This document shows, piece by piece, positions 8,810 through 40,173 of a stretch of DNA of 64,000 nt (positions within the stretch are counted from its first letter, which is position 1; each line of letters starts with the position of its first letter). Below the pieces are notes generated by a model, which saw only the letters and a list, made by a program, of their open reading frames with translations, was not told the origin of the DNA and searched no databases. Both the position numbers and the translations under genes were made by a program. The stretch is from Candidatus Bathyarchaeota archaeon (GTDB lineage Archaea; Thermoproteota; Bathyarchaeia; Bathyarchaeales; Bathycorpusculaceae): assembly GCA_963770935.1 (NCBI GenBank), contig CAVYRJ010000017.1, positions 16,033 to 80,032 on the forward strand. Reading direction: 5' to 3'.

Positions 8810-9691
8810 TTATTCGGTTCGGCTGAGGCTACCTTGGATTTCGGAGTTTATTCTTGAATCGTTTCTACCTTTACTTGCATGTCCAAACCGGGCGACTTGC
8901 CAATTCTTCATGTTGCCTCTAATAATTTGAGGATTGCTCGTTAGTATATAGAATGGCATTTTTGTTTGTGAAGAGTAGAGTTCAGCGATGAAGTTTAGTA
9001 AACTTTTGCCTACGCCGATTCCTTGATAGTCTGGTAACACGACGAGGCGGCTGACTCTAGTATTTTGCTTTCATTCTTACGCAGGCAACAGCAATGAATG
9101 CAATGGGCTTGTCTTGATGGACTGGAGTATAACATCTTACTCCTGCACCTAAGGAGCCCGTTTAGATAGTGATATTGCCGAAACATCTTCCATAGGTTAT
9201 TGCCGCACCGATAGATTTTGAGTTCAACGGGCGGCCGACTTCTTTTTTTCGGCTAAACTCCATAGTGTCAGTGCAGAATACCCAGTCTGGTTCAAGCCAG
9301 TCGATAACGTCATAATGGCAAGTTACAGCTATGAATTTCTTGGAACTTCTGCGTACCGCTTTGCTGATGGCAAAGGCGCTAACTTTGGCGATCTCTCTAT
9401 CCACCCGAAAGTAAACTCGTCGAAAACCACTAATTGCTTATCCAAACAAAGTGCGCGGGCGATGTCTACACGCATCTTCTCTCCCTGACTTAAACAATCA
9501 TAGGCCTTCAACCAGTCTGGTGGAGAAGCAAAACCTAAGCCGCAAAGCATTTTTGTGATCACGCATGTTTCAAAGTGTTGGGGAAAGTCATCTAGAACGC
9601 ACTTGTTTTTGTATTTGAAGTCTCGTATGTAAGCGTCTGGAAAAAGCTGTTTGGCTATGCTGGTTTTGCCTGAGCCACTGCGTCCAACCAT
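8810..9691 (-). pseudogene. ABC-type ATPase / GNAT (Mom-like) acetyltransferase, disrupted
   Basis: GRSGSGKT (Walker A), LSQGEKMR (signature), VVFDEFT (Walker B), VTCHYD (H-loop), then WKMFRQYHYL...RVSRLVVLPDYQGIGVG (GNAT motif A). At least three frame breaks; the N-terminus appears truncated. Confidence 0.8.
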
Positions 9692-10015
9692 AGATCTTTC
9701 ATGAAGCTTTATGATGCTGACCGCTGCCATTTGACTCATTAACTGCTTTTTCTAAATCTGTTAAGTCTAAGAGGATACGGTTAGTAATAGAGTCAAACTT
9801 CTTTGGCTGTTGCCTTTTAAACTGAATAAACCGATAACGGTAACGCATGAGGCTGTTCCAGCTTTTCTTTTCTGTTGTGCTGCCATCCACAAGTAAGCTT
9901 GGGAGTTTGCGCTTAACTCTATCAGCATTTACCAAAAAAGAAAACCTCCTGAATAGTCATGGCAGATGGAAGAGAAAAAAGGGGAGAGTATAGTAAAAAT
10001 ACTCGTCTGGAGGGG

Positions 10016-14622: not shown

Positions 14623-15114
14623 TTACTCTTTTTGTTGAAAGAGTTTCTTGATTGCTCCGATTCTTGCTTTCTGCGCCAGCACATCGCTTGTAACTACTGT
14701 TATGGCTTCTTCTGGGCACCATTTGACGCATTGTGGTCCTTCAGGTTTGTCCTTGCATAGGTCACAGACATAGACGACTTTGGTTTCTGGATGAAGCATC
14801 ATGGCGCCATAGTCGCAGGCTTCAATACACCAGCCGCAGCCATTACATTTATCCTTGTCCAAAACGATTGCACCTGTCTCCTTTGATTGAGTAAGTGCAT
14901 CTCTTGGGCAAGCGGCAACGCATGCTGGCTCTTCGCAAAGTCTACATGTAACAGCCATGTTAGCTAACTGGTTAACACGCACAACTCTGATGCGTGACTT
15001 GAGAGGATTGAATGCTTTCTCTTTGGTAAAGGAGCAAGCGTACTCACATATTTGGCAGCCCACGCATTTTTCTGGATCAACAGAAACAAATTTTCTCTCG
15101 TGGAGTTTAACCAT
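14623..15114 (-). CDS. 4Fe-4S dicluster protein (DmsB/AorA-like partner of AOR)
   Basis: CVGCQICEYAC, CRLCEEPAC, CNGCGWCIEAC, CDLC...CVKWCP. Confidence 0.9.
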   Translation of the reverse strand: MVKLHERKFVSVDPEKCVGCQICEYACSFTKEKAFNPLKSRIRVVRVNQLANMAVTCRLCEEPACVAACPRDALTQSKETGAIVLDKDKCNGCGWCIEACDYGAMMLHPETKVVYVCDLCKDKPEGPQCVKWCPEEAITVVTSDVLAQKARIGAIKKLFQQKE

Positions 15115-15117
15115 ATT

Positions 15118-16991
15118 TTACGCCTCTTTTCCTTCGACTATAGTTTGGTAATCTTGCATGCCTAGTTCTTGGAGCTTAGCTTTGGTTGGTATGCCTTCGA
15201 CGTTCCAGCCGCGTGCTTGATAATAATCGTCTAGTAGGAGGTCAAGTTCTTCTTGGGTTACTACCGCTCCTTTTGCGGTTCCAGCATCTGTAATTGGTTG
15301 GTTCATGACTTTCCAGGGCAATGTGTCGTCTTTTCGACTAAAGCCTTCCCGGACATTGATTAGTTTAGCTAATGTGTTTATTCGTTCGCCCACAACGCCA
15401 AGTTCCTCAGCAGTCATTTCGATGCCCGTGACTAGGTTGTATAGTTTTGCCATGTCGGCGAGTTCTTTGTAGAGGGTACCTTTGGCGTTCTTGCAGATGA
15501 TGAATGAATCGATAAGTGCGTAGATATCTTCTGAGTCTTTGACAAGTTTGCCGCGTCCTTTTTCAGCTTTGAAACGGTCAATTTTGCCCTTCAAGTCGAT
15601 GAGGTAAGCGCCGCTTCGATTTTGGTCTGCTCCACGGAAAGAAACTGCTGAACCTAATGCCGCGGTTTTAAGACAACGTAAATCGAAACCAGTCACTTCT
15701 AAGCCTTTAATCTGTAGGGCTAGCTCAATTGAGTTTTTGCCGATTTTTTCGGCAGCTACCTTTACGCCGTCTGCAAGCATGTCGCCGATGCCTTCGCGTT
15801 TGCCGATTTTTTCGATAAGTTGCAGGAGTGCGTCTGCGTTTCCGAAGTGAGCATCTAATCCTTCGAGATCTTCATGGGTTAGTATGCCTTTTTCGTGGCA
15901 GTCCATGACGAAGCTAACGGTTACGCCTGCGCTTGTTGCATCAAGACCGTAGTGGTTGCAAAGTTCAGCGGCTTTAATTATTGCATCGAGTTTGTCTACT
16001 CCACAGTTTGGACCCAATGCCCAGATATTATCGTATTCCATGCGGGCTAAAGTGCCTTTGTAAGGTCCTTCTTTTATGACAGCTTCATGTTCACATCGCA
16101 TGGCACATGAGTTGCAAGCGATGATTTTTGCAATATAGCGCTCATTGAGTGTTTCAGCGCTGACTTTTTCAGCGTTCTCAAAATGCGCGTTATTGAAGTT
16201 GCGTGTTGGTAAACAGAAAAGTTCGTTCTGCACCAATTATATTTTCGGATGTACCAAGGGTGCGGTATTTCTGTGCAGCTGGTCCTTTCATGCGTTCATG
16301 GAATTCTTTTACCATTGTTATGAATTCGTCGGGTTTAGCGACAACTATGTCTCTGGTGCCTCTGACAGCGATGGCTTTGAGGTTTTTGCTTCCCATGATT
16401 GCACCAAGACCTGTCCTTCCGGCTGCCCGTGTTTTCTCGTTTATTATGCATGCGATTTTTGAGAGTTTCTCGCCTGCTAAACCAATAGATGCAACTCGAA
16501 CGTAGTAATCGCCCAGCTCATTTTTTATAGCATCTTCGGTTTCGCCAGGGGATTTACCCCAAAGTTGTGCCGCATCTAAGAAGCTGGACTGAGTCATCGT
16601 CAATCCAGAGATAAACTGGCTTGTCAGCCTTGCCCGTTAAAATTACAGCGTCGTACCCTGCACGTTTTAGTTCTGCGCCAAAGGTGCCGTGGCTTACAGC
16701 TTCTCCAACGCCATTTGTTTCGGGTGATTTAGATATGAATGCGTGACCGTTTCCGCCTGTCGGAAACATTGTTCCTGAAACTGGACCAAGTGCCAAAACA
16801 AGCGGGTTTTCCGCGCTTAGCGGGTTTACACCTGCTTTTGAGTTGGATAAGTAGAGTTTCATGCCAAGGCCGATGCCGCCAATGTATTTTTTGGCGGTCT
16901 CATCGGGTAATTTTTCAGTTCGGGTCTTGCCGGTGGTTAAATCAACGTATAAGATTGTTCCTGCGTAACCTAGCAACCTTGTTTCCTCCAA
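15118..16991 (-). CDS. Aldehyde:ferredoxin oxidoreductase family protein, variant active site (apparent frameshifts near 16580 and 16240)
   Basis: YIGGIGLG, SKSP, LKRAGYDA, AAGRTGLGAIMGSKNLKAI, CNSCAMRC, YYQARGW. Confidence 0.88.
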
Positions 16992-17206
16992 GATTATTGA
17001 AAGTATTTAGTGCTGTTGAACAATATATTAAGTTAATGGGTTCTTTGCTTGAAAATTCATGGCTTTAATTTCGCATTACAAAAGTCGTTTTGAATGATCG
17101 AGAATATCGCTTAATCGCTAAATTCTATGATAAAAACGAAAGATGCAATAGAAAAGAAATATCAGAACCCCAAACAAATACTAACCCAGAGCAGAAGGCA
17201 AAACAA

Positions 17207-17494
17207 ATGCAAGTTAAAGTTCACTACATCAGCCTAGTAAAATCCTACACAAACAAAAGCCAAGACGAATTCAACCTCCCAGATGGCACCCCACTGTCGG
17301 GTCTGCTCGACAAAATCGCCCAAGCCTATGGCAGCCAATTCTCAAAGGAAGTCTATGATCCAACCAAAAAAGAGATGAAGGCAACGTTCGTGGCGATGGT
17401 TAACGGTGTTTTGATGGACCAGCTAAAAGGCGTAGACACACATCTCAAAGACGGCGACAGCGTAATTTTGATGTCGTTAGTGACAGGCGGCTAA
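17207..17494 (+). CDS. MoaD/ThiS (SAMP-like) ubiquitin-fold protein
   Basis: MVNG...LKDGDSV...VTGG with C-terminal di-glycine; lies between the AOR operons. Confidence 0.88.
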   Translation: MQVKVHYISLVKSYTNKSQDEFNLPDGTPLSGLLDKIAQAYGSQFSKEVYDPTKKEMKATFVAMVNGVLMDQLKGVDTHLKDGDSVILMSLVTGG

Positions 17495-17618: not shown

Positions 17619-18131
17619 TTATTTTGATTTGTTGGCTTCTTCGACGGTTTGAAACAGGTTCTTGACAGCTTTCTGTCGGTATTTCTGCGCTAATGTTTCT
17701 GCTGTAACGTAGGTTAATGCTTCTTCTGGACACCATTTGACGCATTGTGGCTCTTTTGTTTCGTTGTCAGTGCAGCTGTTGCAGGTGAACACGACTTTCT
17801 TTTCTGGATGCATGTTCATAGCGCCGAATTGGCATGCGCTTATGCACCATCCGCAGCCGTTGCAAGCGTTTTCGTCAACGCGTATTATACCGCTGTCTTC
17901 TTCTTGTTTTAGAGCGTCTCTTGGGCAGGCTGCTACACATGCTGGGTCTTCACAGTGTCTGCAGGTGATTGCAAGGTTTACCAATGGTCCAATTCGCATG
18001 GCGCGTATACGTGATTTGTTTGGGTTGAAGGTTTTCTCGTTAATCATGCTACAAGCATATTCGCAGACGCAGCAACCAATGCATTTGTCTGGATCAGCAG
18101 TCACGAATTTTCGATCTTGTGGACGCACCAT
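17619..18131 (-). CDS. 4Fe-4S dicluster protein, paralog of 14623-15114
   Basis: Four Cys cluster motifs. Confidence 0.9.
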   Translation of the reverse strand: MVRPQDRKFVTADPDKCIGCCVCEYACSMINEKTFNPNKSRIRAMRIGPLVNLAITCRHCEDPACVAACPRDALKQEEDSGIIRVDENACNGCGWCISACQFGAMNMHPEKKVVFTCNSCTDNETKEPQCVKWCPEEALTYVTAETLAQKYRQKAVKNLFQTVEEANKSK

Positions 18132-18132
18132 T

Positions 18133-20047
18133 TTAGGTTCCTCCTACACTTGCAACTGCAGCTACAGGCTTGTTTTCTTTGGCTGCTTTCATTGCGTCTT
18201 CGGCAATGTAAGCTAAGTCTCCTAACCCTACCTGTTGCAAACGTTCAACCGTTGGGATACCATCAGCCGTCCATCCACGTGAAGCATAATAGTCATCTAA
18301 GCCAATTGCCATTTCCTCGTCGTTGACACAGACGCCCTTTGCTGGTCCCTCGTCAGGAACTGGGAAATGCTTTATCTTGTATGGAACATCGTCGTATTTG
18401 CGTGTGCCTTTGCCTTCACGTATGTTGAAGAGTCTTGCCAAGTTTTCGATTCTGTCGCCGTCTAGCATCATCTCTTCTACGGTGATTGGGATGCCTGTAG
18501 CTAAGGTGTAGTAGTTTGCGAGATCTTTCCAGCCGTCGTAGTATGTGCCTCTGCTAAATTTGCATACAATAAGTGAGTCAATGATGTTGTACATTTTGCT
18601 TTCATCAGTAATCGTTTTGCCGCGTCCAGCCTCAATCTTGAAGCGGTTAAACTTTCCCTTAACGTCAGGTGAGTAAGCTCCGTTTCTTAGGTGGCAAGCG
18701 CCTCTGAAAGATACTGAGAAGCCTAGTGCAGCAGTCTTTAGAGTTCTTAGGTCGTAGCCTGGAAGCTCTAAGCCTTTGATGTGGCAGGCATACTTGTATG
18801 CGTCTCCGCCGATTAATTCGGCAGCTTTTGCTACTCCTTCAGCCAAAATGTTTCCCAGCCAGCCTTCACGTTTACCAATCTTGTGAATAATAGCGATTAG
18901 TGCTTCAGCGTTGCCGAACTTTAAGGTCGATTCCGTCGGTTTGTTCCTTGGTGATTATGCCGTGCTCATAGAGATCCATCGCGAACGCGACAACAACGCC
19001 TATTGAGATGCCGTCCATGCCGTACTCGTTAACAATTCGCATTGCTTCGATAATTGCGTCTAAGCGGTCAACACCGCAAAGTGGTCCCATGCTCCAGAGG
19101 CATTCGAATTCCAATCGTGAAGTTGAACCTTTGTATGGTCCTTCGGGAACAACGCCGATGTGGTCACAACGCATACCGCAAGTTGCACAGCCGACAATTT
19201 TCTTAACATAATGCTCGTTGAAGTATTCGCCGCTTACTTTGTTGGCGCCTTCAAAAGTGGCGTTCGTCCAGTTCCTTGTTGCCAAGGCTGAAAGCGAGTT
19301 TAGAACCAAAACGTTTTCGGGTGTGCCTAAGGTTTTGTATTTCTTGGTTGATGGACCCTTCATACGTTCATGGATAAGTTTAACAAATTCCATGAATCCT
19401 TTAAGATCCGCTACGTTGACATCTTTTGTGCCTCGTACAGCGACTGCCTTGAGGTTTTTAGAACCCATAACTCCGCCCATACCGCTTCTTCCAATAGCAC
19501 GAAACTCATCGTTTATTATAGCTGCAAACCTGCAAAGTTTCTCGCCTGCTTCACCAATCGCTGAAACACGGATGTAAAAGTCGCCGAGTTCATCTCGGAT
19601 TTTGTCATCAGTTTCTCTAACGGTTGCATTTTTGAGGTATTCAGCATTTCGGATTTCAACTTTGTCATCGTCAATCCACAGGTAAGATAGTTTAGGTGCT
19701 TTACCTTTTATTATAACAGCATCGTAGCCCGCACGTTTTAGGTCAGGTCCGAAGAAGCCGTGGGCTTCGCCATTACCGATACCGCCGGTGGCAGGAGATT
19801 TGGACACGACGGCGTAGCTGTTGCCGCCTGTTGGACCCATGGTGCCGCTAAGTGGACCCGTTAAGTAAATAATCGGGTTATCTGGGTCATATGGATCAGT
19901 GCCTGGTTTTGAATTGTCAAACAGTAAGCGGATACCTAAACCTATTCCGCCGATGTAGTCTTTAGCCATCTGCTCTGATAATGGCTCGGTTTTTATTTCT
20001 CCTGTCGTGAGGTTAACATGTAAAATTTTTCCCGCATAAGCAAACAT
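18133..20047 (-). CDS. aor: Aldehyde:ferredoxin oxidoreductase, canonical active site (apparent frameshift near 18920)
   Basis: CATCGMRC, EFE, YGMD, GYDLR, RGACH, DSLIVC. Confidence 0.88.
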
Positions 20048-20242
20048 GCTTTCTTCCCCTCAATGTTGTTATGTAAAAGGCATTTGAAAACTATATTAAG
20101 TTAATGGCAGTTGCGTTTAAAAAAACACGGTTATTTTCGACCTGTTTTTTGTTACATAACGCAAAATAGAGCCCTCCCCAAGCACTCGTGGAAGCGAAAA
20201 CTTAAACCAACCCAACCTCTACCCCATAAGCAGGCGAAAAAC

Positions 20243-28211: not shown

Positions 28212-29072
28212 TTAACGTTGTGTTCGCTCGTAGTGGTAGAGGTATTCTTGAGCGTAGCCTGCGTAAGCGCCGAAGTAATTTCGGGCGAAATCGCCGATTT
28301 TTATGTATTCACCGTTGGTTAATGAGTTGTGGCTACGCATTTTCTGTACAAACGGTTCAGGCAACTTATCTGCGTAATGATTAAGTATCACCCGTTTAAC
28401 CCAAACATCCACGGGAAAAGCCTCCAGTTTTCTGAGCGAAAAAAGCAGCACGCAATCCGCCACCTTCAAGCCCACCCCAGAGAACTCCAAGAGTTTTTCT
28501 CTGGCTTCCAGATAAGGCAAATTCTTCAAGTCTTCAAGGTTTACTTTTTCGCCGTGGATTTTTTTGGCTGTTGCCTGTACGTATTTGGCTCTGTAGCCTA
28601 AACCGCATTCTTTCAAACCATTCTCGCTTGCATACGCCAGCTTTTCAACAGTTGGGAAAGTGTAGAAGTCCATGCCGTCGAAAACCTGTTTTTCCCCGTA
28701 TTTCACTGAGATTTTTTTAAGCATCAGTTCGATGGCGGCTATGCTCTTGTATGTGGCACAGATGAAGCTGATTAGGCATTCCCAAGGCACCTGCCGAACA
28801 ATCCTCAACCCCTCAAACCGCTGCAGAGCCTTCTGGACATATTCGTCTTTAGCGATGCATTGGCTGATTTCCGCTAAGTCATCGTTTAAACCAAAATAAG
28901 TCTTAACAAAGTCTTTGCTGACATTCTCAAACTTTAACTCAGAGCCACATTGACAAATCTTAACAACATTTTCCCCGACAACACCATACCACCATCCATC
29001 AATCTTCCGCCACCTAAACACCTGTCCACAGCAAAGCGAAAAATCCAAATCAAACGGAACAGCAAGACGCAT
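28212..29072 (-). CDS. ogg: 8-oxoguanine DNA glycosylase (OGG1-like, HhH-GPD)
   Basis: CGQVFRW N-domain, GLGYRAKY, GVGLKVADC, FPVDVWV, YAGYAQEYLY. Confidence 0.9.
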   Translation of the reverse strand: MRLAVPFDLDFSLCCGQVFRWRKIDGWWYGVVGENVVKICQCGSELKFENVSKDFVKTYFGLNDDLAEISQCIAKDEYVQKALQRFEGLRIVRQVPWECLISFICATYKSIAAIELMLKKISVKYGEKQVFDGMDFYTFPTVEKLAYASENGLKECGLGYRAKYVQATAKKIHGEKVNLEDLKNLPYLEAREKLLEFSGVGLKVADCVLLFSLRKLEAFPVDVWVKRVILNHYADKLPEPFVQKMRSHNSLTNGEYIKIGDFARNYFGAYAGYAQEYLYHYERTQR

Positions 29073-31199
29073 CAGTGTTGCTCCATGAACTTTTCAGGCT
29101 TAGGAACCTCTGACGCTAACCCTTTTCGCTGACGCAAATCAGCAATAACTTCAGAAGAGAGTTTTTGGGGCATTTTTTCCCAGTGGTCAAAGAATGTTTG
29201 CCAAAAGGCTCTGCCTGAGGTTGCTGAGCGGAGTTCTTTTGAGAAGCCAAAAGTTTCGGAGACGGGTATGTACCCACTGATGATGGTGAGCAGTCCTTTT
29301 TGCTCAAACAAGGTTACTTTTCCGCGTCGGGTGGAGAGGATTCTTGAGGATTCTCCTGAGAGTTCGGTGGCGACGGATATGATTATTTTGTATATTGGCT
29401 CAAGCAGGGCTGGGTCAGCGGTTAGGAAGCTACCGAAGACTGCTTTGCCTACGCCATGCATGACTTCTAAACCGCCTTCACCGCTTTGATTTAATTGTAA
29501 ATCCACCAAGTTCACCTGCAAATGTCGCACTGGTTCACCGCAGAGTGGACCAGCCCTGCACGCATACTCGAACCCCGCGATAATGGCTTCCAACTTCTCC
29601 TCGGAGATTTGCTCGGTTTTTCCGCTGCAGTCCAAAAGCACATTCCGATGCTCATCAACTGAAAGGATGCTGCCCGAATCCGCTTCGGCTGATGTGGTAG
29701 CTTCTTCGGCTTCAGGCATAACTTGCACCCAAAAACTATCCAGCTTGTTTGGGCTTTTCGCCAAAGCAACCACACCTTTTTTCAGGGCACTCTCCATGTA
29801 AACAACTCTTGGCGAAGAAACCGAAACATTGATGCCGTTGCTTTTTAGTTGGTGGATGGCTATTTCCAAGTGCAATTCGCCCATGCCGCTTAGCAGGTAC
29901 TCGCCAGTTTGCTTATCCGCGGTGACCTTTAAGTTTGGGTCTTCGCTTGCAAGCTTCTCGAGGGCATCGAGCAATAAGGGAATTTCCGCAGGATTTTTTG
30001 GTTCAACCGCCAAAGTCACCACAGGCTCTGAAACATAGCATATACCCTCGAAGGGCACCATGCAGTCTTTATGTGCCAAGTCAACCAGCGTTTCGCCAGC
30101 CCCAACGCGCCCCGTCAATGTAAAAGAAGCTAAACTGCCAGCTGAAACTTCACTGACTTCTTCTCGAAGCGAACCCATATCGATGGAGACTTCTTTAACC
30201 TCAGTCTCAGATAGGGCATCCACAAGATGCAACCTATCACCCTTCTTGGCTTTGCCAGAGAAAACTCGTCCAGTGGCCACAGTATCTCCGTTTGGGTCAG
30301 AATGCACGTTGGTTACAAACATGATAGTTGGCGCATCATCACGGCATTCAATAAGTGCCTTGCCAATCTTCGAGCTGATTTGTCCATCCCAAACCTTCTC
30401 AATTCGATATGCTTGAGCTTCCCGTGGATTTGGAACCACGTTTATTGCCATTTCGAAAACTGCCTCGTAAACTGGCAAGGTCGTTTGCAGTTTCGCCTGC
30501 TCACCACTAGCGTACGCTTTTGTTATGTCTGAAAACTTTATCCCGTGCTGCTTTGCCATGTTCATGGTGAAGCCCCAGCCAGTGTAATGCGGAGCCAAAA
30601 GCCACATTGCCCTGTGAGGCACTGATTTTCCATTGGTTCTTGAATGGGGGTTCTGCGTATAGTTCGATAAGGTCGTTGAATCGACTGATTATGTTGTCGA
30701 GTTTCTTTTGGATTTGTTCCTCATTTAGCTGCAGCTCAATGATTAGTTTGTCAACTTTGTTGATGAACAATACTGGGCGCACGCGTTCTTCAAGGGCTTG
30801 CCTAGTGACGATTTCGGTTTGAGCCATGATTTCCTCAACGGCATCCACTACCACGACTGCCCCGTCGATGACACGTAGTGCTCTGGTGACTTTGCCAGTG
30901 AAATCTACGTGCCCCGGTGTGTCAACAAGATTTATGATGTATGGGATACCTGCGGCTTTGTAGAGGAGGCTGATGTTGGCTGTTTTTATGGTGATTTTGC
31001 GCTTCTGCTCTTCCTCTAGGTAATCGAGCACTCTTGCCATGCCAGCCATCCGTGGCGACAATAAACCTGCCCCGGCCAGCAAGGAATCAGCGAGGGTAGT
31101 TTTGCCGTGATCGATGTGTGCAATGATACCTATGTTTCTGATAAGCTCTTTTCTGCCCATCAATTGCTGCATTTCAAGGATTTGCTTAAACCGCGGCAT
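29072..31199 (-). CDS. Elongation factor 2 paralog (aEF-2p-like), apparent +1 insertion near 30582
   Basis: AHIDHGKTT, DTPGHVDF, NKVD, GMGELHLE, LLEP, LRSATSGRA; no HRG diphthamide loop. Confidence 0.85.
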
Positions 31200-35487: not shown

Positions 35488-35737
35488 CACACAACTCATC
35501 CAAAGTCAAAAAAAGGAAAACCAATAACAATTCTAATCCTCCGAAAAAAAATGTACCATTGATATAATGGGAGCTATAGAAAAAGGGTAAACTAAGACCT
35601 AATAGGTACCCAATTGTTTTCAACAAAAACAAGGGAGATTAAACGAAGGTTTGGCTGAAACTTTATGTACTGGAAATGGGCTTTTCTTGGTCTAAGCACG
35701 TATTGTGCTAACTAAATTAACTGTCAAGGTTAAGCTT

Positions 35738-36301
35738 ATGACTGAGGCAGCGCCAAATCCAACCCAAAGTAAAGATCAACCCATAAGAGCTTCCGAACTG
35801 GATCCTAAATTTAAGTATGAACTTCAAAAAATTCATGGAAGCGAAAAAATTCTGAAATGTTTCCAGTGTGGAACCTGCACCTCTGACTGTCCAGTTGCAC
35901 GCTTCAGCGACAGTTACAGACCGCGAACGCTTATTCATATGGCACAGCTGGGCTTAAAAGACCGCGTTCTAAACAGTGACACTTTGTGGCTTTGTGCAGC
36001 CTGCTTCACATGCACAGACCGCTGCCCCCAAGACGTTGAAGTCGCAGCTGTCATCCGCGTCTTCCGCAATTTAGCCGCAGAAAAAGGCTGTGTCCCACAG
36101 GTTTTCAAAGACCAAGCTGCAAGCCTTCTCGAATCAGGGTACGCCTACAAAATTCCCGAATTAAGAGTTAAAAAGCGCGAATCTCAAGGCCTTCCACCTC
36201 TGCCAAAAGGAAACCCAGAAAACGTAAAAAAAACCCTCAAAGGCGTAAAATTCATCGAAAAAATCCAAAAACCCGCAGGAGAAAAACCAAGTGGGCAATA
36301 A
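35738..36301 (+). CDS. hdrC: Heterodisulfide reductase subunit C
   Basis: CFQCGTCTSDCP and LWLCAACFTCTDRCP. Confidence 0.92.
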   Translation: MTEAAPNPTQSKDQPIRASELDPKFKYELQKIHGSEKILKCFQCGTCTSDCPVARFSDSYRPRTLIHMAQLGLKDRVLNSDTLWLCAACFTCTDRCPQDVEVAAVIRVFRNLAAEKGCVPQVFKDQAASLLESGYAYKIPELRVKKRESQGLPPLPKGNPENVKKTLKGVKFIEKIQKPAGEKPSGQ

Positions 36302-37184
36302 ATACCTCATATTCCTTGGATGCGCTATTCCCTATCGAGTTTCATCTTTTGAAATTTCTTCACGCAAAGTCCTGTCTAAACTCGGTGTTGAACTCGTTGA
36401 AATGCCAGAGTTCAACTGTTGCGGCTTACCTTTAGACCCTGTAAGCCACGAAACCATGCTTATTTTGGCTGCGAAGAACTTAGCATTAGCAGAACAGCAG
36501 AGCTTAAACATTCTCACATTATGTCCAGGTTGCGCTGGAACACTTAAGAAAGTTAACAAAATACTAAAAGCAGACAAAGCACAAAGAGAGGAAATCAACG
36601 CTCATCTCAAAGAAGCAGGTTTAGAATTCAAAGGAACAATTGAAACCAAACATCTTTTGCAGCTGCTTAAAGAAGATGTAGGGTTAGAAAAAATCAAAGC
36701 CTCAGTCGTTAAGCCACTAACAAACCTCAAAGTTGCTGAACACAACGGCTGCCACATCCTAAGACCCAAAGAATACATTGACTTTGATGACCCAGAAGAC
36801 CCACAAACACTGAAAATGCTTATAGAAGCCACTGGAGCTACATGTCTAGACTACATTGACGAGACCGAATGTTGTGGAGCGCCCAGCGTTGGTGTAAGCG
36901 ACAAAGTAGCGTTGGCATTGGCAAAAGACAAACTAAGCCACATAAAACAAGTCGATGCACAAGCTTTAATCACTATTTGCCCATTTTGCCACATAATGTA
37001 CGATACAAACGAGTTACGTATAGAGAAACTGTTTAATGAAACCTATGGAATCCCAATTCTTCATTACCCACAATTACTCGGGTTAGCCATGGGTATGACA
37101 CCTGAAGAGTTAGCCTTCAACGAACTTCGAGTAAACGCATCAAACCTGCTAAAACATGTAAATCAAGGAGCAAACAAACCATGA
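36291..37184 (+). CDS. hdrB: Heterodisulfide reductase subunit B
   Basis: Two CCG domains (FLGC..NCCG..CPGC; HNGCH..ECCG..CPFC). Confidence 0.92.
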   Translation: MGNKYLIFLGCAIPYRVSSFEISSRKVLSKLGVELVEMPEFNCCGLPLDPVSHETMLILAAKNLALAEQQSLNILTLCPGCAGTLKKVNKILKADKAQREEINAHLKEAGLEFKGTIETKHLLQLLKEDVGLEKIKASVVKPLTNLKVAEHNGCHILRPKEYIDFDDPEDPQTLKMLIEATGATCLDYIDETECCGAPSVGVSDKVALALAKDKLSHIKQVDAQALITICPFCHIMYDTNELRIEKLFNETYGIPILHYPQLLGLAMGMTPEELAFNELRVNASNLLKHVNQGANKP

Positions 37185-38170
37185 GTCAAAACAAACTAAA
37201 AATCGCCTTCTATTGGGCTGCAAGTTGTGGCGGCTGCGAAATAGCTGTCTTAGACTTAAACGAGAAAATCCTCGATGTAGTAAAAATAGCCGATATAGTT
37301 TTCTGGCCAGTAGCTATCGACATTAAATACAAAGATGTTGAAGCGCTTCCAGACAAACACATAGACATAACCTTCTTCAACGGCTCCATCCGCAATTCAG
37401 AACAAGAACACATGGCAAAAGTACTAAGAGCAAAATCCAAGACTCTTGTTGCTTTCGGCTCATGCGCCCATGAAGGCTGCGTTCCAGGCTTAGCAAACCT
37501 AAGCGACAAACAAGAGATTTTTGAGCAAGTTTACATAAAAGACAAATCAAACGTTAATCCCCAGGCAACAATTCCCAAGACTCAAACCCAAGTCAAAGAA
37601 GGCACCCTAAAAATCCCAGAATTCTACGATACCGTAAAAACCCTAGCACAAACAGTTGATGTTGACTATTACCTCCCAGGTTGCCCACCCCCAGTTAAGC
37701 TAATCGCGGCAGCAGTTGACGCCATCGCAAGCAACAAACTTCCACCCAAAGGCTCAGTTTTAGCTCCACTCAAAGCAGTATGTGATGAATGCCCAAGAAA
37801 ACGCGAAAACAAAAAAATCGACAAAATCTACCGAGTCTACGAGAAAACGCCTGAACCAGAAAAATGCCTGATGGAACAGGGTATAGTTTGCATGGGAATG
37901 GCAACCAGAAGCGGCTGTGGTGCTCAATGCTTAAAAGTTGATATGCCATGCACAGGTTGCGGTGGACTAGCCCCTAATGTTCCAGAGCAAGGAGCAGCCA
38001 TGATAACTGCCTTAGCATCAATTCTCGGCTACGACGGCGTAGAAGGAAAAACCAAGTACACTGAAGAAGAAATTGAAGACTTAATGAACCAAATTAAAGA
38101 CCCAGTTGGCACAGTGTACATGTACAGTCTACCAAATTCCATCTTAAAAAGAAAGGTGATTAAAAAATGA
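37181..38170 (+). CDS. mvhG: Group 3c [NiFe]-hydrogenase small subunit
   Basis: ASCGGC, GSCA..GC, PGCPP, CDECPR, CLMEQG.VCMG, CTGCGG. Confidence 0.9.
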   Translation: MSQNKLKIAFYWAASCGGCEIAVLDLNEKILDVVKIADIVFWPVAIDIKYKDVEALPDKHIDITFFNGSIRNSEQEHMAKVLRAKSKTLVAFGSCAHEGCVPGLANLSDKQEIFEQVYIKDKSNVNPQATIPKTQTQVKEGTLKIPEFYDTVKTLAQTVDVDYYLPGCPPPVKLIAAAVDAIASNKLPPKGSVLAPLKAVCDECPRKRENKKIDKIYRVYEKTPEPEKCLMEQGIVCMGMATRSGCGAQCLKVDMPCTGCGGLAPNVPEQGAAMITALASILGYDGVEGKTKYTEEEIEDLMNQIKDPVGTVYMYSLPNSILKRKVIKK

Positions 38171-39624
38171 AAGAAATAGTAATAGACCCAATCACACGCC
38201 TTGAAGGACACGGAAACGTATCCATATTTTTAAACGACCAGGGCGAAGTAGAAAACGCTTACCTCAAAATACCCGAACTACGCGGCTTTGAGAAATTCTG
38301 CATTGGCAGAAGAGCAGAACTCATGCCCCAGTTAACCACAAGAATCTGCGGTGTCTGTCCCGTTGCCCACCACTTCGCCGCAACCAAAGCGTTAGATGCC
38401 GCATTCAACGTTGAACCAACCTCTGCAGCAAAGAAACTACGAGAACTCATGTACGCAGCTTACTACATTTACGACCACACTTTGCACTTCTACTATCTAG
38501 GTGGACCAGACTTCATCGTTGGACCAGATGCACCAGCAGAAAAACGCAACATATTAGGCGTCATCGAAAAAGTAGGCATGCCCATTGCGGCAGAAGTTAT
38601 AAAACATCGTGCTTACGGGCAGAAAATAACTGAAATCATCGGCGGAAAAGCAACCCATCCAACCTGCGGATTGCCAGGCGGAATCTCCAAACCGCTAAGC
38701 GAGGAGAACAGGCAAGAAATCGAAAAGATGGCAGCCTCCTGCGTGGGTTTTGCACAGTTCTCATTGAAAATCTTCCATGATATCGTTTTGGGCAACAGCA
38801 AATATGTGGACATGATTTTGAGCCAAGCTTACACTATGCCAACCTACTACATGGGTATGGTTGACCAAAACAACAAAGTCAATTTTTACGACGGCAAAAT
38901 CCGCGTGGTTGACCCGGCTGGCAAAGAATTCCTCAAGTTCGAATCCAAAGACTACCTCAAACACATCGGCGAACACGTCGAAGAATGGACCTACAGCAAA
39001 TTCCCATACCTTAAAGCAATAGGCTGGAAAGGACAAGTTGCAGGTGCAGACAGCGGCGTTTACCGGGTTGGTCCACTTGGACGCTTAAACGCTTCAGATG
39101 GCATGGCGACACCACTTGCACAGGCAGAATACCAAGAAATGTATAAAACATTAGGCGGCAAACCAGTCCACAGTACACTTGCTTTCCATTGGGCGCGGTT
39201 GATTGAATTGCTCTACGCAACAGAAAGAACCATGGAGCTCGTAAAGGACCCCGAAATCACAAGCACAAACGTACGCAACAAACCAGGCGAACCAGGACAA
39301 GGCGTTGGAATCGTTGAAGCTGCACGCGGCACACTCATCCACGATTACACCCTTGACAAGGATGCACTAGTCAAAGACGTTAACCTAATCGTTGCAACCA
39401 CCAACAATTATCCTGCAATCTGCATGAGCGTACGTGACGCAGCAAAAGGCCTAATCCATGGCGGCAAAGTCGACCAAGGCATCTTAAACAAGGTTGAAAT
39501 GGCGTTCCGCGCATACGACCCATGCTTTGGCTGCGCAACACATGCCGCAGTCGGACAAATGCCATTGACTGTAGAAGTTTTCAACGCTCAAAAACAGTTA
39601 GTTAACTCGGTTAGTCGCCAGTAG
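38167..39624 (+). CDS. mvhA: Group 3c [NiFe]-hydrogenase large subunit
   Basis: TRLEGH, RGFE, RICGVC, RAYDPCFGCATH plus a cleavable C-terminal tail. Confidence 0.93.
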   Translation: MKEIVIDPITRLEGHGNVSIFLNDQGEVENAYLKIPELRGFEKFCIGRRAELMPQLTTRICGVCPVAHHFAATKALDAAFNVEPTSAAKKLRELMYAAYYIYDHTLHFYYLGGPDFIVGPDAPAEKRNILGVIEKVGMPIAAEVIKHRAYGQKITEIIGGKATHPTCGLPGGISKPLSEENRQEIEKMAASCVGFAQFSLKIFHDIVLGNSKYVDMILSQAYTMPTYYMGMVDQNNKVNFYDGKIRVVDPAGKEFLKFESKDYLKHIGEHVEEWTYSKFPYLKAIGWKGQVAGADSGVYRVGPLGRLNASDGMATPLAQAEYQEMYKTLGGKPVHSTLAFHWARLIELLYATERTMELVKDPEITSTNVRNKPGEPGQGVGIVEAARGTLIHDYTLDKDALVKDVNLIVATTNNYPAICMSVRDAAKGLIHGGKVDQGILNKVEMAFRAYDPCFGCATHAAVGQMPLTVEVFNAQKQLVNSVSRQ

Positions 39625-39675
39625 CCCTTTTTTGTGGGCAACCTGTTTTATCATTTTTAAATTTATTCTCTTATC

Positions 39676-40173
39676 ATGGGTGCTTCCATGGCGGATACAA
39701 TCGAAAAAGACTTAAAAAACTGGTTTGCCAACGCAAACAAAATTGTCTTAGCGGGAATAGGTAATCCAATACGCAAAGACGATGATGTTGGATTAAAAAT
39801 AGTTCAAAGCCTGCAAGGAAAGGTTCCAGAAAATGTTTGCCTACTAGAATGCGAGACCGTTCCAGAAAGCTACATCTTAGATATAGAGCAGTTTAAGCCA
39901 ACTCATGTCTTGTTGATTGATGCCGCTTTTTTGGGTTTAAAACCCGGGGAAGCAAGACTTCTTGACACCGAAGAAATTAAGGATTTTCCCGCTATAACGA
40001 CGCATATGTTGCCTTTGAAGATTTTCTGCGAGTACGTTAAGCAGGCAACTGGAGCAAAAATTGCCTTGTTGCTTATAGAACCAACAAGTATTGAATTTGG
40101 TGAAGGCTTGAGCAATGAAGTTGAGGCAGCATCAGAGAGACTATCAAAGTTACTTCTTGAGATGCTGGGTTAG
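39676..40173 (+). CDS. hycI: Hydrogenase maturation protease
   Basis: GIGNPIRKDDDVG, ETVPE, LIDAA, TTH. Confidence 0.9.
   Translation: MGASMADTIEKDLKNWFANANKIVLAGIGNPIRKDDDVGLKIVQSLQGKVPENVCLLECETVPESYILDIEQFKPTHVLLIDAAFLGLKPGEARLLDTEEIKDFPAITTHMLPLKIFCEYVKQATGAKIALLLIEPTSIEFGEGLSNEVEAASERLSKLLLEMLG

Follow-up and report, generated by a model that had tools for sequence, protein, structure and literature searches.

The window analysed here is a 64,000-nucleotide stretch of a Candidatus Bathyarchaeota archaeon assembly (GCA_963770935.1, contig CAVYRJ010000017.1), and it carries two related modules of tungstopterin oxidoreductase genes. Gene A lies upstream of gene B, each large-subunit gene is followed by a polyferredoxin gene, and a ThiS/MoaD-like gene sits between the modules on the other strand. 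The features of the locus are:

14623..15114, reverse strand: WorS-B, a polyferredoxin whose 16 Cys are invariant and whose C-terminal extension is conserved
15118..16976, reverse strand: WorL-B ("B"), tungstopterin oxidoreductase large-subunit paralogue (Pfam AFOR_N and AFOR_C; tblastn with the homologue P0001)
15487..15495, reverse strand: fourth Fe-S Cys of B, then Lys, then Asn in place of the substrate-stacking Phe (AorAa Phe511) (alignment)
15622..15627, reverse strand: Asp-Gln codons at the PfAOR Cys447-His448 position of B (HMMER alignment)
15685..15687, reverse strand: Phe codon at the PfAOR Tyr427 position of B (HMMER alignment)
16030..16032, reverse strand: Asp codon at the PfAOR Glu313 position of B (HMMER alignment)
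16093..16116, reverse strand: CxxCxxxC of B, three [4Fe-4S] ligands (translation)
16235, reverse strand: frameshift 2 in B, a single-base insertion, position approximate (blastn against relatives' loci)
16577, reverse strand: frameshift 1 in B, a single-base insertion, position approximate (blastn against relatives' loci L001, L014, L017, L031 and L073)
17025..17038, reverse strand: promoter-like element about 60 nt upstream of B, the same element as upstream of A
17207..17494, forward strand: WorX, ThiS/MoaD-like sulfur carrier, divergent from B (Pfam; TIGR01687)
17619..18131, reverse strand: WorS-A, polyferredoxin of the canonical module
18133..20047, reverse strand: WorL-A ("A"), sister paralogue with Thr/Glu/Tyr/His intact (Pfam AFOR_N and AFOR_C)
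20093..20106, reverse strand: promoter-like element about 60 nt upstream of A, the same element as upstream of B

The WorX reading frame opens at 17090, with homology beginning near 17207, and scores 47.1 bits against TIGR01687 (cut-off 49.5). The start of B, initially placed at 16991, is the TTG at 16976, as judged from alignment to homologues and an upstream GGAGG; throughout the upstream sequences compared, B starts with TTG and A with ATG. B is 618 aa long when intact and lies in three pieces in the GCA_963770935.1 window. An intact 618-aa homologue (P0001) is 98% identical to B over the C-terminal 372 aa and carries the same Asp, Phe and Gln (D/F/Q) at the positions of PfAOR Glu313, Tyr427 and His448. 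Because this near-identical protein keeps the triad, D/F/Q is genuine and not sequencing noise, and the two frameshifts in B are probably assembly errors, as judged from assembled sequences. Gene A carries one single-base insertion near 18920 (blastn against relatives). Elsewhere in the window, an EF-2-like gene (29072-31199) is broken near 30575; its C-terminal piece shows no HRG diphthamide-type motif, and it may be the divergent archaeal EF-2 paralogue. Fragmented ORFs at 8810-9935, in several frames and resembling by eye an ABC-ATPase/acetyltransferase gene, are consistent with further indel errors or a pseudogene.

The initial annotation compared the two neighbours and reported that EFE becomes EYD, GYDLR becomes GFDLR and RGACH becomes RGADQ in B, while the Fe-S and pterin motifs are retained. 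The translations agree: B reads MEYDNIW, VTGFDLR and FRGADQNR where A reads LEFECLW, LPGYDLR and FRGACHLR, and CxxCxxxC, the fourth Cys, GLD and GR.G.GA.MGSKNLK are all present in B. In an HMMER alignment with residues counted, D315, F430 and Q451 (P0001 numbering) align with Glu313, Tyr427 and His448 of 1aor, which upholds the assignment of the swapped positions to the substrate site; these are three of the four second-shell residues named in passages of PMC13328260 and PMC12096430. The equivalents of Thr243 and Glu311 are kept in B. The description of B as paired with a canonical AOR holds for the Thr/Glu/Tyr/His set of A, but A is itself frameshifted and is not fully canonical either, with its Arg76 and Thr344 equivalents replaced, as they are in B. 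In both proteins Asn stands at the Arg76 position, and a conserved Gly near the Mg site is replaced by His. An invariant Cys directly follows the catalytic Glu of A (EFEC, window 19095-19110; 29/29), at a position occupied by Thr in most of the family.

An AlphaFold model of P0001 (pLDDT 97.2, 147 diverse alignment rows) superposes on 1aor with a TM score of 0.95 and an rmsd of 1.4 Å (Foldseek), the residue equivalences being those of the sequence alignment. CxxCxxxC is invariant in 84 of 84 B rows (83 from the best 77 of 307 GTDB loci, plus P0001), as are R187, K197, N198, D345, R433, R447, R453, D489 and the four Fe-S Cys. From family conservation and the PfAOR structure, we take these invariant residues to bind the cofactors. 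Two further pocket changes are fixed in B, Cys447 to Asp and the Phe after the fourth Cys to Asn, among 38 fixed A/B differences; D450 and N496 are the B-specific invariant residues near the site. Asp at the Cys447 position occurs in all of the best 120 of 7999 candidates and in 43 of 146 family representatives (best 150 of 14,153 less four). Asn follows the fourth Cys in 84/84 B rows, and Phe stands there in 29/29 A proteins from the best 77 loci and in 100/144 outgroup proteins; in AorAa this residue, Phe511, stacks on benzoate (bioRxiv 2023.01.23.525143). A GOR-like glycolytic role was considered because invariant basic residues beyond the fourth Cys are common to A and B; for termite-gut Bathy-6, the part of PMC7886697 available reports the EMP pathway for gluconeogenesis only.

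To what extent the triad marks B as a whole can be read from its homologues. A search scored 7999 candidates, and the best 120 carry Asp at position 313 in 118, Tyr, Phe and His at 427 in 117, 2 and 1, and His, Gln and Asn at 448 in 103, 16 and 1; D/Y/H is found in 102 and D/F/Q in 2. A GTDB scan with two B-type peptide patterns returned 307 relatives, and the best 77 loci, nearly all titled Bathyarchaeia, gave 115 full-length large subunits (83 B, 29 canonical A and 3 degenerate A); frameshifted or partial copies stand outside the 115, and the B copies among them with a visible site carry His. The 83 B proteins from these best 77 of 307 loci have Asp (74) or Glu (9) at 313, Tyr (81) or Phe (2) at 427, His (67), Gln (14), Asn (1) or Leu (1) at 448, and Thr (56) or Ser (27) at the Thr/Ser site, and D/F/Q occurs in none of them. 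A sample of the wider family at 50% identity comprised 146 representatives (the best 150 of 14,153 matches, with four partial or over-long rows set aside): 117 keep Glu313 and 29 lack it, 67 keep Tyr427 and 79 lack it, and 138 keep His448, with Gln in its place in 0. From these residue counts, Asp or Phe taken singly is unremarkable and His to Gln is a rare change.

The triad is therefore not a family signature of B, whose typical form is D/Y/H, and the view of D/F/Q as its defining feature is not supported. D/F/Q is a shallow lineage trait, but it points to two paralogues, paired across the lineage, in which catalytic residues erode reciprocally. Nine B genes with Glu again at 313 (L047, L059, L061, L063, L065, L067, L070, L074 and L077) form one clade, apparently a reversion from Asp; the L070 protein within it has Leu for His448. 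His recurs inside the Gln-bearing B clade (L001, L003 and L031).

In a FastTree phylogeny, A (including its degenerate members) and B separate as sister clades, each with full support; the deep outgroup branches of this tree are long and unsure, and a quick IQ-TREE phylogeny was used for B alone. Judged from these sequences, B is an ancient paralogue of A, present across Bathyarchaeia (307 GTDB matches). In 28 genomes with both genes, the median dN/dS (Nei-Gojobori) is 0.040 for A and 0.065 for B, based on 152 of 378 usable pairs, the remainder being near saturation. Gln-bearing and His-bearing B have near-equal values of 0.074 and 0.072, which argues that loss of His did not relax gene B. The dN/dS comparison proposed in the initial annotation (0.065-0.074 for B) speaks against a decaying duplicate.

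The second shell of B has changed more than its other polar sites. Five second-shell or relay sites and 40 other polar sites are conserved to at least 80% in the family beyond A and B; on the B tree, changes occur at 4 of the 5 and at 8 of the 40 (Fisher p 0.014; permutation on summed changes p 0.003). A review supplied the list of sites, the site set and the 80% threshold were picked after the data were seen, and Tyr427 lies outside the set. On a shared tree of the 28 genomes, six second-shell or relay sites changed 10 times in B and never in A (p 0.02), with A accounting for 553 of all 1724 changes. A separate search found 96 of 97 canonical A proteins identical at all second-shell sites, the remaining one differing by Phe to Tyr at 312. 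The second shell is relaxed in B and not in A. Changes in B number 10 at the Thr/Ser site, 5 at His, 4 at Tyr312 and 3 at Tyr427, with a protein-wide median of 3.

The arrangement around B is conserved. In the best 77 of 307 loci, WorS follows the end of B in 75, the other two stopping at a contig edge, in agreement with the earlier description of B as having its own polyferredoxin. Canonical A adjoins B in 31 of the 77 loci (two partly visible, and two loci from one genome), and the tandem arrangement recurs. Directly after the prolidase gene, which flanks A in the window, comes B in 9 loci and a degenerate A in 4. The other loci have this block of genes truncated or rearranged, and A may be located at another place; absence of A here means absence from the syntenic site in these 77 loci. 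A ThiS-like gene is present in 31/31 loci with canonical A and 0/13 loci with A missing or degenerate. B is tandemly doubled in 13 of the 77 loci (L035, L043, L045, L046, L049, L050, L058, L068, L069, L071, L072, L075 and L076), and the tree suggests that the B module was duplicated independently more than once. Because B is found, also in duplicate, at loci whose syntenic site lacks A, an obligate hetero-oligomer of B with A is disfavoured. The other recurring neighbours of B are peptidases, UppP and housekeeping genes without a substrate clue, and at the loci examined neither a conserved flavoprotein neighbour nor a new metal ligand or gene of a dedicated pathway recurrently accompanies B.

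All 16 non-His B proteins in the best 77 of 307 loci adjoin canonical A (16/30), and non-His B is found in 0/21 cases where A is missing or degenerate, all of which keep His, and in 0/32 where the state of A is undefined. The link between His loss and A adjacency is not significant when descent is allowed for (3-5 independent pairs, median p 1).

A 14-base element with a TATA-like core lies about 60 nt upstream of both A and B, and with up to 1 mismatch allowed the window holds no further copy. It precedes 73/83 B, 24/29 A and 3/3 degenerate A genes, and 100 of its 124 matches in 1.5 Mb lie before these large-subunit genes. A sigma-70 promoter scan stayed at chance level. The promoter-like element suggests that the modules are two separately transcribed, co-regulated units, although it may simply descend from the duplication. 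Each copy also lies upstream of a divergent gene (ThiS-like and prolidase, respectively). Both WorS proteins have 16 Cys and a common C-terminal extension where AorA and AmWorS have a filament helix; in WOR5-S a longer C-terminal helix folds back and no wire forms, according to a passage of PMC12318220. A complex prediction of WorS-A with WorS-B returned a score of 0.00 and "no answer", which is evidence neither way.

A second kind of erosion is seen on the A side. A search with the degenerate A of L072 recovered 23 proteins of one type among the best 120 (P0271-P0288 and five more). All 23 have lost the Thr243 context and the Arg of the RG.CH motif, most have Asp at both Glu311 and Glu313, several are without His, and 7 have lost one or two Fe-S cysteines. 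Their ORFs are full length except for one partial, and dN/dS is about 0.10-0.13 (3 pairs). In four loci the degenerate A precedes two His-bearing B copies:

L072, 4385-6259: degenerate A
L075, 6915-8789: degenerate A
L076, 6574-8430: degenerate A
L068, 6929-8786: degenerate A

These proteins are arguably stronger pseudoenzyme candidates than D/F/Q B.

By architecture, B is a class II WOR (WorLS). It has the AFOR_N and AFOR_C domains, the AOR fold, four Cys for a [4Fe-4S] cluster and the conserved pterin/phosphate motifs of the AOR/WOR family, together with an adjacent WorS that has four [4Fe-4S] clusters, without WorN or WorABC at the locus. It departs from AOR sensu stricto in the second shell (T/D/F/Q in the window for Thr243/Glu313/Tyr427/His448) and in the aromatic pocket (Asn for AorAa Phe511 in all B rows), from GAPOR (40 bits against NCBIfam NF040818, where 1300 are required) and from YdhV/BamB (214.5 bits against NF007354, cut-off 868). 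The four second-shell residues of GOR (C. bescii clade 20) are complete in A and not in B.

The nearest described systems are the class II WORs, P. furiosus WOR5/ASOR and C. bescii GOR, which like B combine a tungstopterin large subunit with an adjacent four-cluster polyferredoxin (PMC13328260, in part); as in those systems, a ThiS-like WorX lies near and flavin or bifurcating subunits are not conserved at the locus. B is 29% identical to WOR5 and differs in its second shell (D/F/Q or D/Y/H) and in belonging to two sister modules with a common promoter, whereas C. bescii GOR keeps all four second-shell residues and ASOR changes Tyr to His (PMC12096430, in part). The best matches, 1aor (P. furiosus AOR) and 9mqx (A. 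mobile WOR1 large subunit), share 38-39% identity (TM 0.93-0.95), the Fe-S ligands and most pterin ligands with B. Unlike them, B has other residues at the equivalents of Glu313, Tyr427, His448, Cys447, Arg76 and Thr344, and its residue in place of the Phe that stacks on aromatics is Asn; it is not a stand-alone class I enzyme, and its locus encodes no WorABC. The AorAB nanowire of Aromatoleum aromaticum (8c0z) resembles the present system in that WorS is homologous to AorA, with an extension at the filament-helix place; it differs in that the locus encodes no AorC and a filament would be putative. A wire here could be decorated by two distinct large subunits, an arrangement not described for AorAB in the sources seen in part. 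P. furiosus WOR4 contains W, has a changed second-shell Tyr and showed no detected aldehyde activity (PMC12096430, in part), but its change is Tyr to Trp with loss of one Fe-S Cys, and B keeps four. The BamB/YdhV clade is similar in missing the usual second-shell residues and having different chemistry, although B, 26% identical to BamB, is closer to the AORs.

An ESM Atlas search gave generic AFOR clusters only, and a known role is given for only five of 92 WOR clades in the available part of PMC13328260. The supplement of the review lists Bathyarchaeota accessions, without sequences; Bathyarchaeia are not mentioned in the available content of three supplementary files of PMC13328260, nor is an A/B pair reported in the available parts of PMC7886697, PMC10116835 and PMC9246946. 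A literature search of mostly openly accessible papers, partly by whole-word matching, returned no A/B pair, D/F/Q WorL or non-catalytic WorL subunit. The A/B pair is a real, undescribed-looking variant of the known AOR/WOR family.

Structural papers propose that Glu313 acts as base, His448 as hydrogen-bond partner or proton relay, and Tyr427 in substrate positioning (PMC12096430, PMC12727526 and PMC12318220, each in part); our literature search found no mutagenesis of these residues, and the roles are proposals from structures and modelling. We suggest that an old duplication in Bathyarchaeia gave rise to B as the large subunit of a further class II WorLS module, and that B is transcribed from a separate copy of the promoter that A uses. 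It would bind bis-pyranopterin, probably with W, and one [4Fe-4S] cluster, and pass electrons to its own polyferredoxin, as its invariant ligands and fold imply. B in its typical form (Asp/Tyr/His, Cys447 replaced by Asp and the stacking Phe by Asn) is most likely still an oxidoreductase with a more polar, remodelled pocket, since it is maintained and doubled where canonical A is missing from the site, and retains His in every such case; its substrate is probably not an aromatic aldehyde.

D/F/Q B would be a late, lineage-specific erosion of this enzyme. Gln cannot shuttle protons and Phe has no hydroxyl, and the Glu-His relay and the Tyr contact are therefore probably lost. We tentatively favour a reading of the sequences in which D/F/Q B lost most canonical chemistry while remaining necessary, alongside catalytic A, as a redox subunit loaded with cofactor. 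Consistent with it are the invariant ligands, the second shell changing in B and fixed in A, the similar dN/dS of Gln- and His-bearing B, the location of all 16 non-His B beside canonical A while 21/21 B without canonical A keep His, and a precedent within the subfamily in the 23 intact degenerate A orthologues. Against it, the association of His loss with A does not hold up after descent is considered, the swaps are all conservative, and the return of His in the Gln clade fits tolerance equally well. The residue roles are also proposals, and changes of Tyr to His and of Thr to Ser are tolerated in characterised AORs (PMC12096430, in part).

Several other explanations have to be weighed. A doubtful one is that all B, D/F/Q included, are active on another substrate or by other chemistry, with His448 and Tyr427 dispensable and the fixed Asp450, Asn496 and Glu311 lining a new pocket. 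The B-specific invariant D450 and N496, the 38 fixed differences from A, the full retention of a costly cofactor site and the equal dN/dS of Gln and His lineages would fit, and BamB and GAPOR function without some of these residues (PMC12096430, in part). However, the frequency of Asp at 447 in the family (43/146) argues against a special new catalytic residue, and the neighbours of B include no recurrent new metal ligand or pathway gene. The initial annotation had itself proposed different chemistry or a non-catalytic role for B; the invariant ligands and relaxed second shell are in keeping with this, but the triad on which it was built does not define the clade.

It is unlikely that the whole B clade is non-catalytic, a tungstopterin/Fe-S decoration of the WorS wire acting as electron store or scaffold, with the second shell held by packing. 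Such a role would accord with second-shell change counts near the protein-wide median of 3, which indicate no special constraint, with the Asp-to-Glu reversion in nine proteins, the conserved TTG start and the C-terminal extension of both WorS at the filament-helix place. Yet B is kept and duplicated with A absent or degenerate in 13/77 loci (best 77 of 307), which would leave no catalytic subunit at the locus, and 67/83 B retain His and 81/83 Tyr.

We consider it very unlikely that B is an ordinary AOR isoenzyme whose three conservative swaps tune rate or specificity: its fold is nearly that of PfAOR and second-shell variation is widespread in the family, but His448 is kept in 138/146 representatives and never replaced by Gln, three changes occur at once, and Glu and His aid proton exchange in all the mechanisms proposed in the available part of PMC12727526. 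That B is a decaying duplicate or assembly artefact, as its two frameshifts might imply, is scarcely credible and already largely refuted by the intact P0001 with the same triad, the splits in canonical A and the EF-2-like gene, and 83 full-length B (best 77 of 307 loci) under purifying selection. The initial annotation would have seen such decay in orthologues retaining E/Y/H together with real frameshifts; most orthologues do keep Tyr and His, but the frameshifts are probably assembly errors.

Seen together with the degenerate A lineage, our favoured reading of D/F/Q B as a cofactor-loaded redox subunit admits a broader and doubtful extension, in which sister WorLS modules form a mixed WOR assembly where one large subunit turns pseudoenzyme while the other stays catalytic, the roles swapping between lineages. 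The lineage in the window would have eroded B (D/F/Q) beside an intact A, and another would have eroded A beside two His-bearing B. If so, the tungsten-oxidoreductase family would contain naturally retained non-catalytic subunits along with a mutant series for the Glu/Tyr/His mechanism, and if eroded copies do stay as cofactor-loaded subunits, a pseudoenzyme role would be added to the family. What is proposed for Glu313, Tyr427 and His448 in catalysis comes from structures and models, and the natural variants (E/Y/H in A; D/Y/H, E/Y/H, D/Y/Q and D/F/Q in B; degenerate A) make the mechanism directly testable. Bathyarchaeia abound in sediments and soils, their AOR genes are labelled wholesale as aldehyde oxidoreductases, and counting "aor" genes may overstate aldehyde-oxidising capacity.

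The window also contains, at 35705-40173, HdrC/HdrB-like genes and a cluster of NiFe hydrogenase small-subunit, large-subunit and maturation-protease genes. A similar Hdr/NiFe hydrogenase cluster lies directly upstream of A in L059, L063, L065 and L070, and is a possible electron partner.
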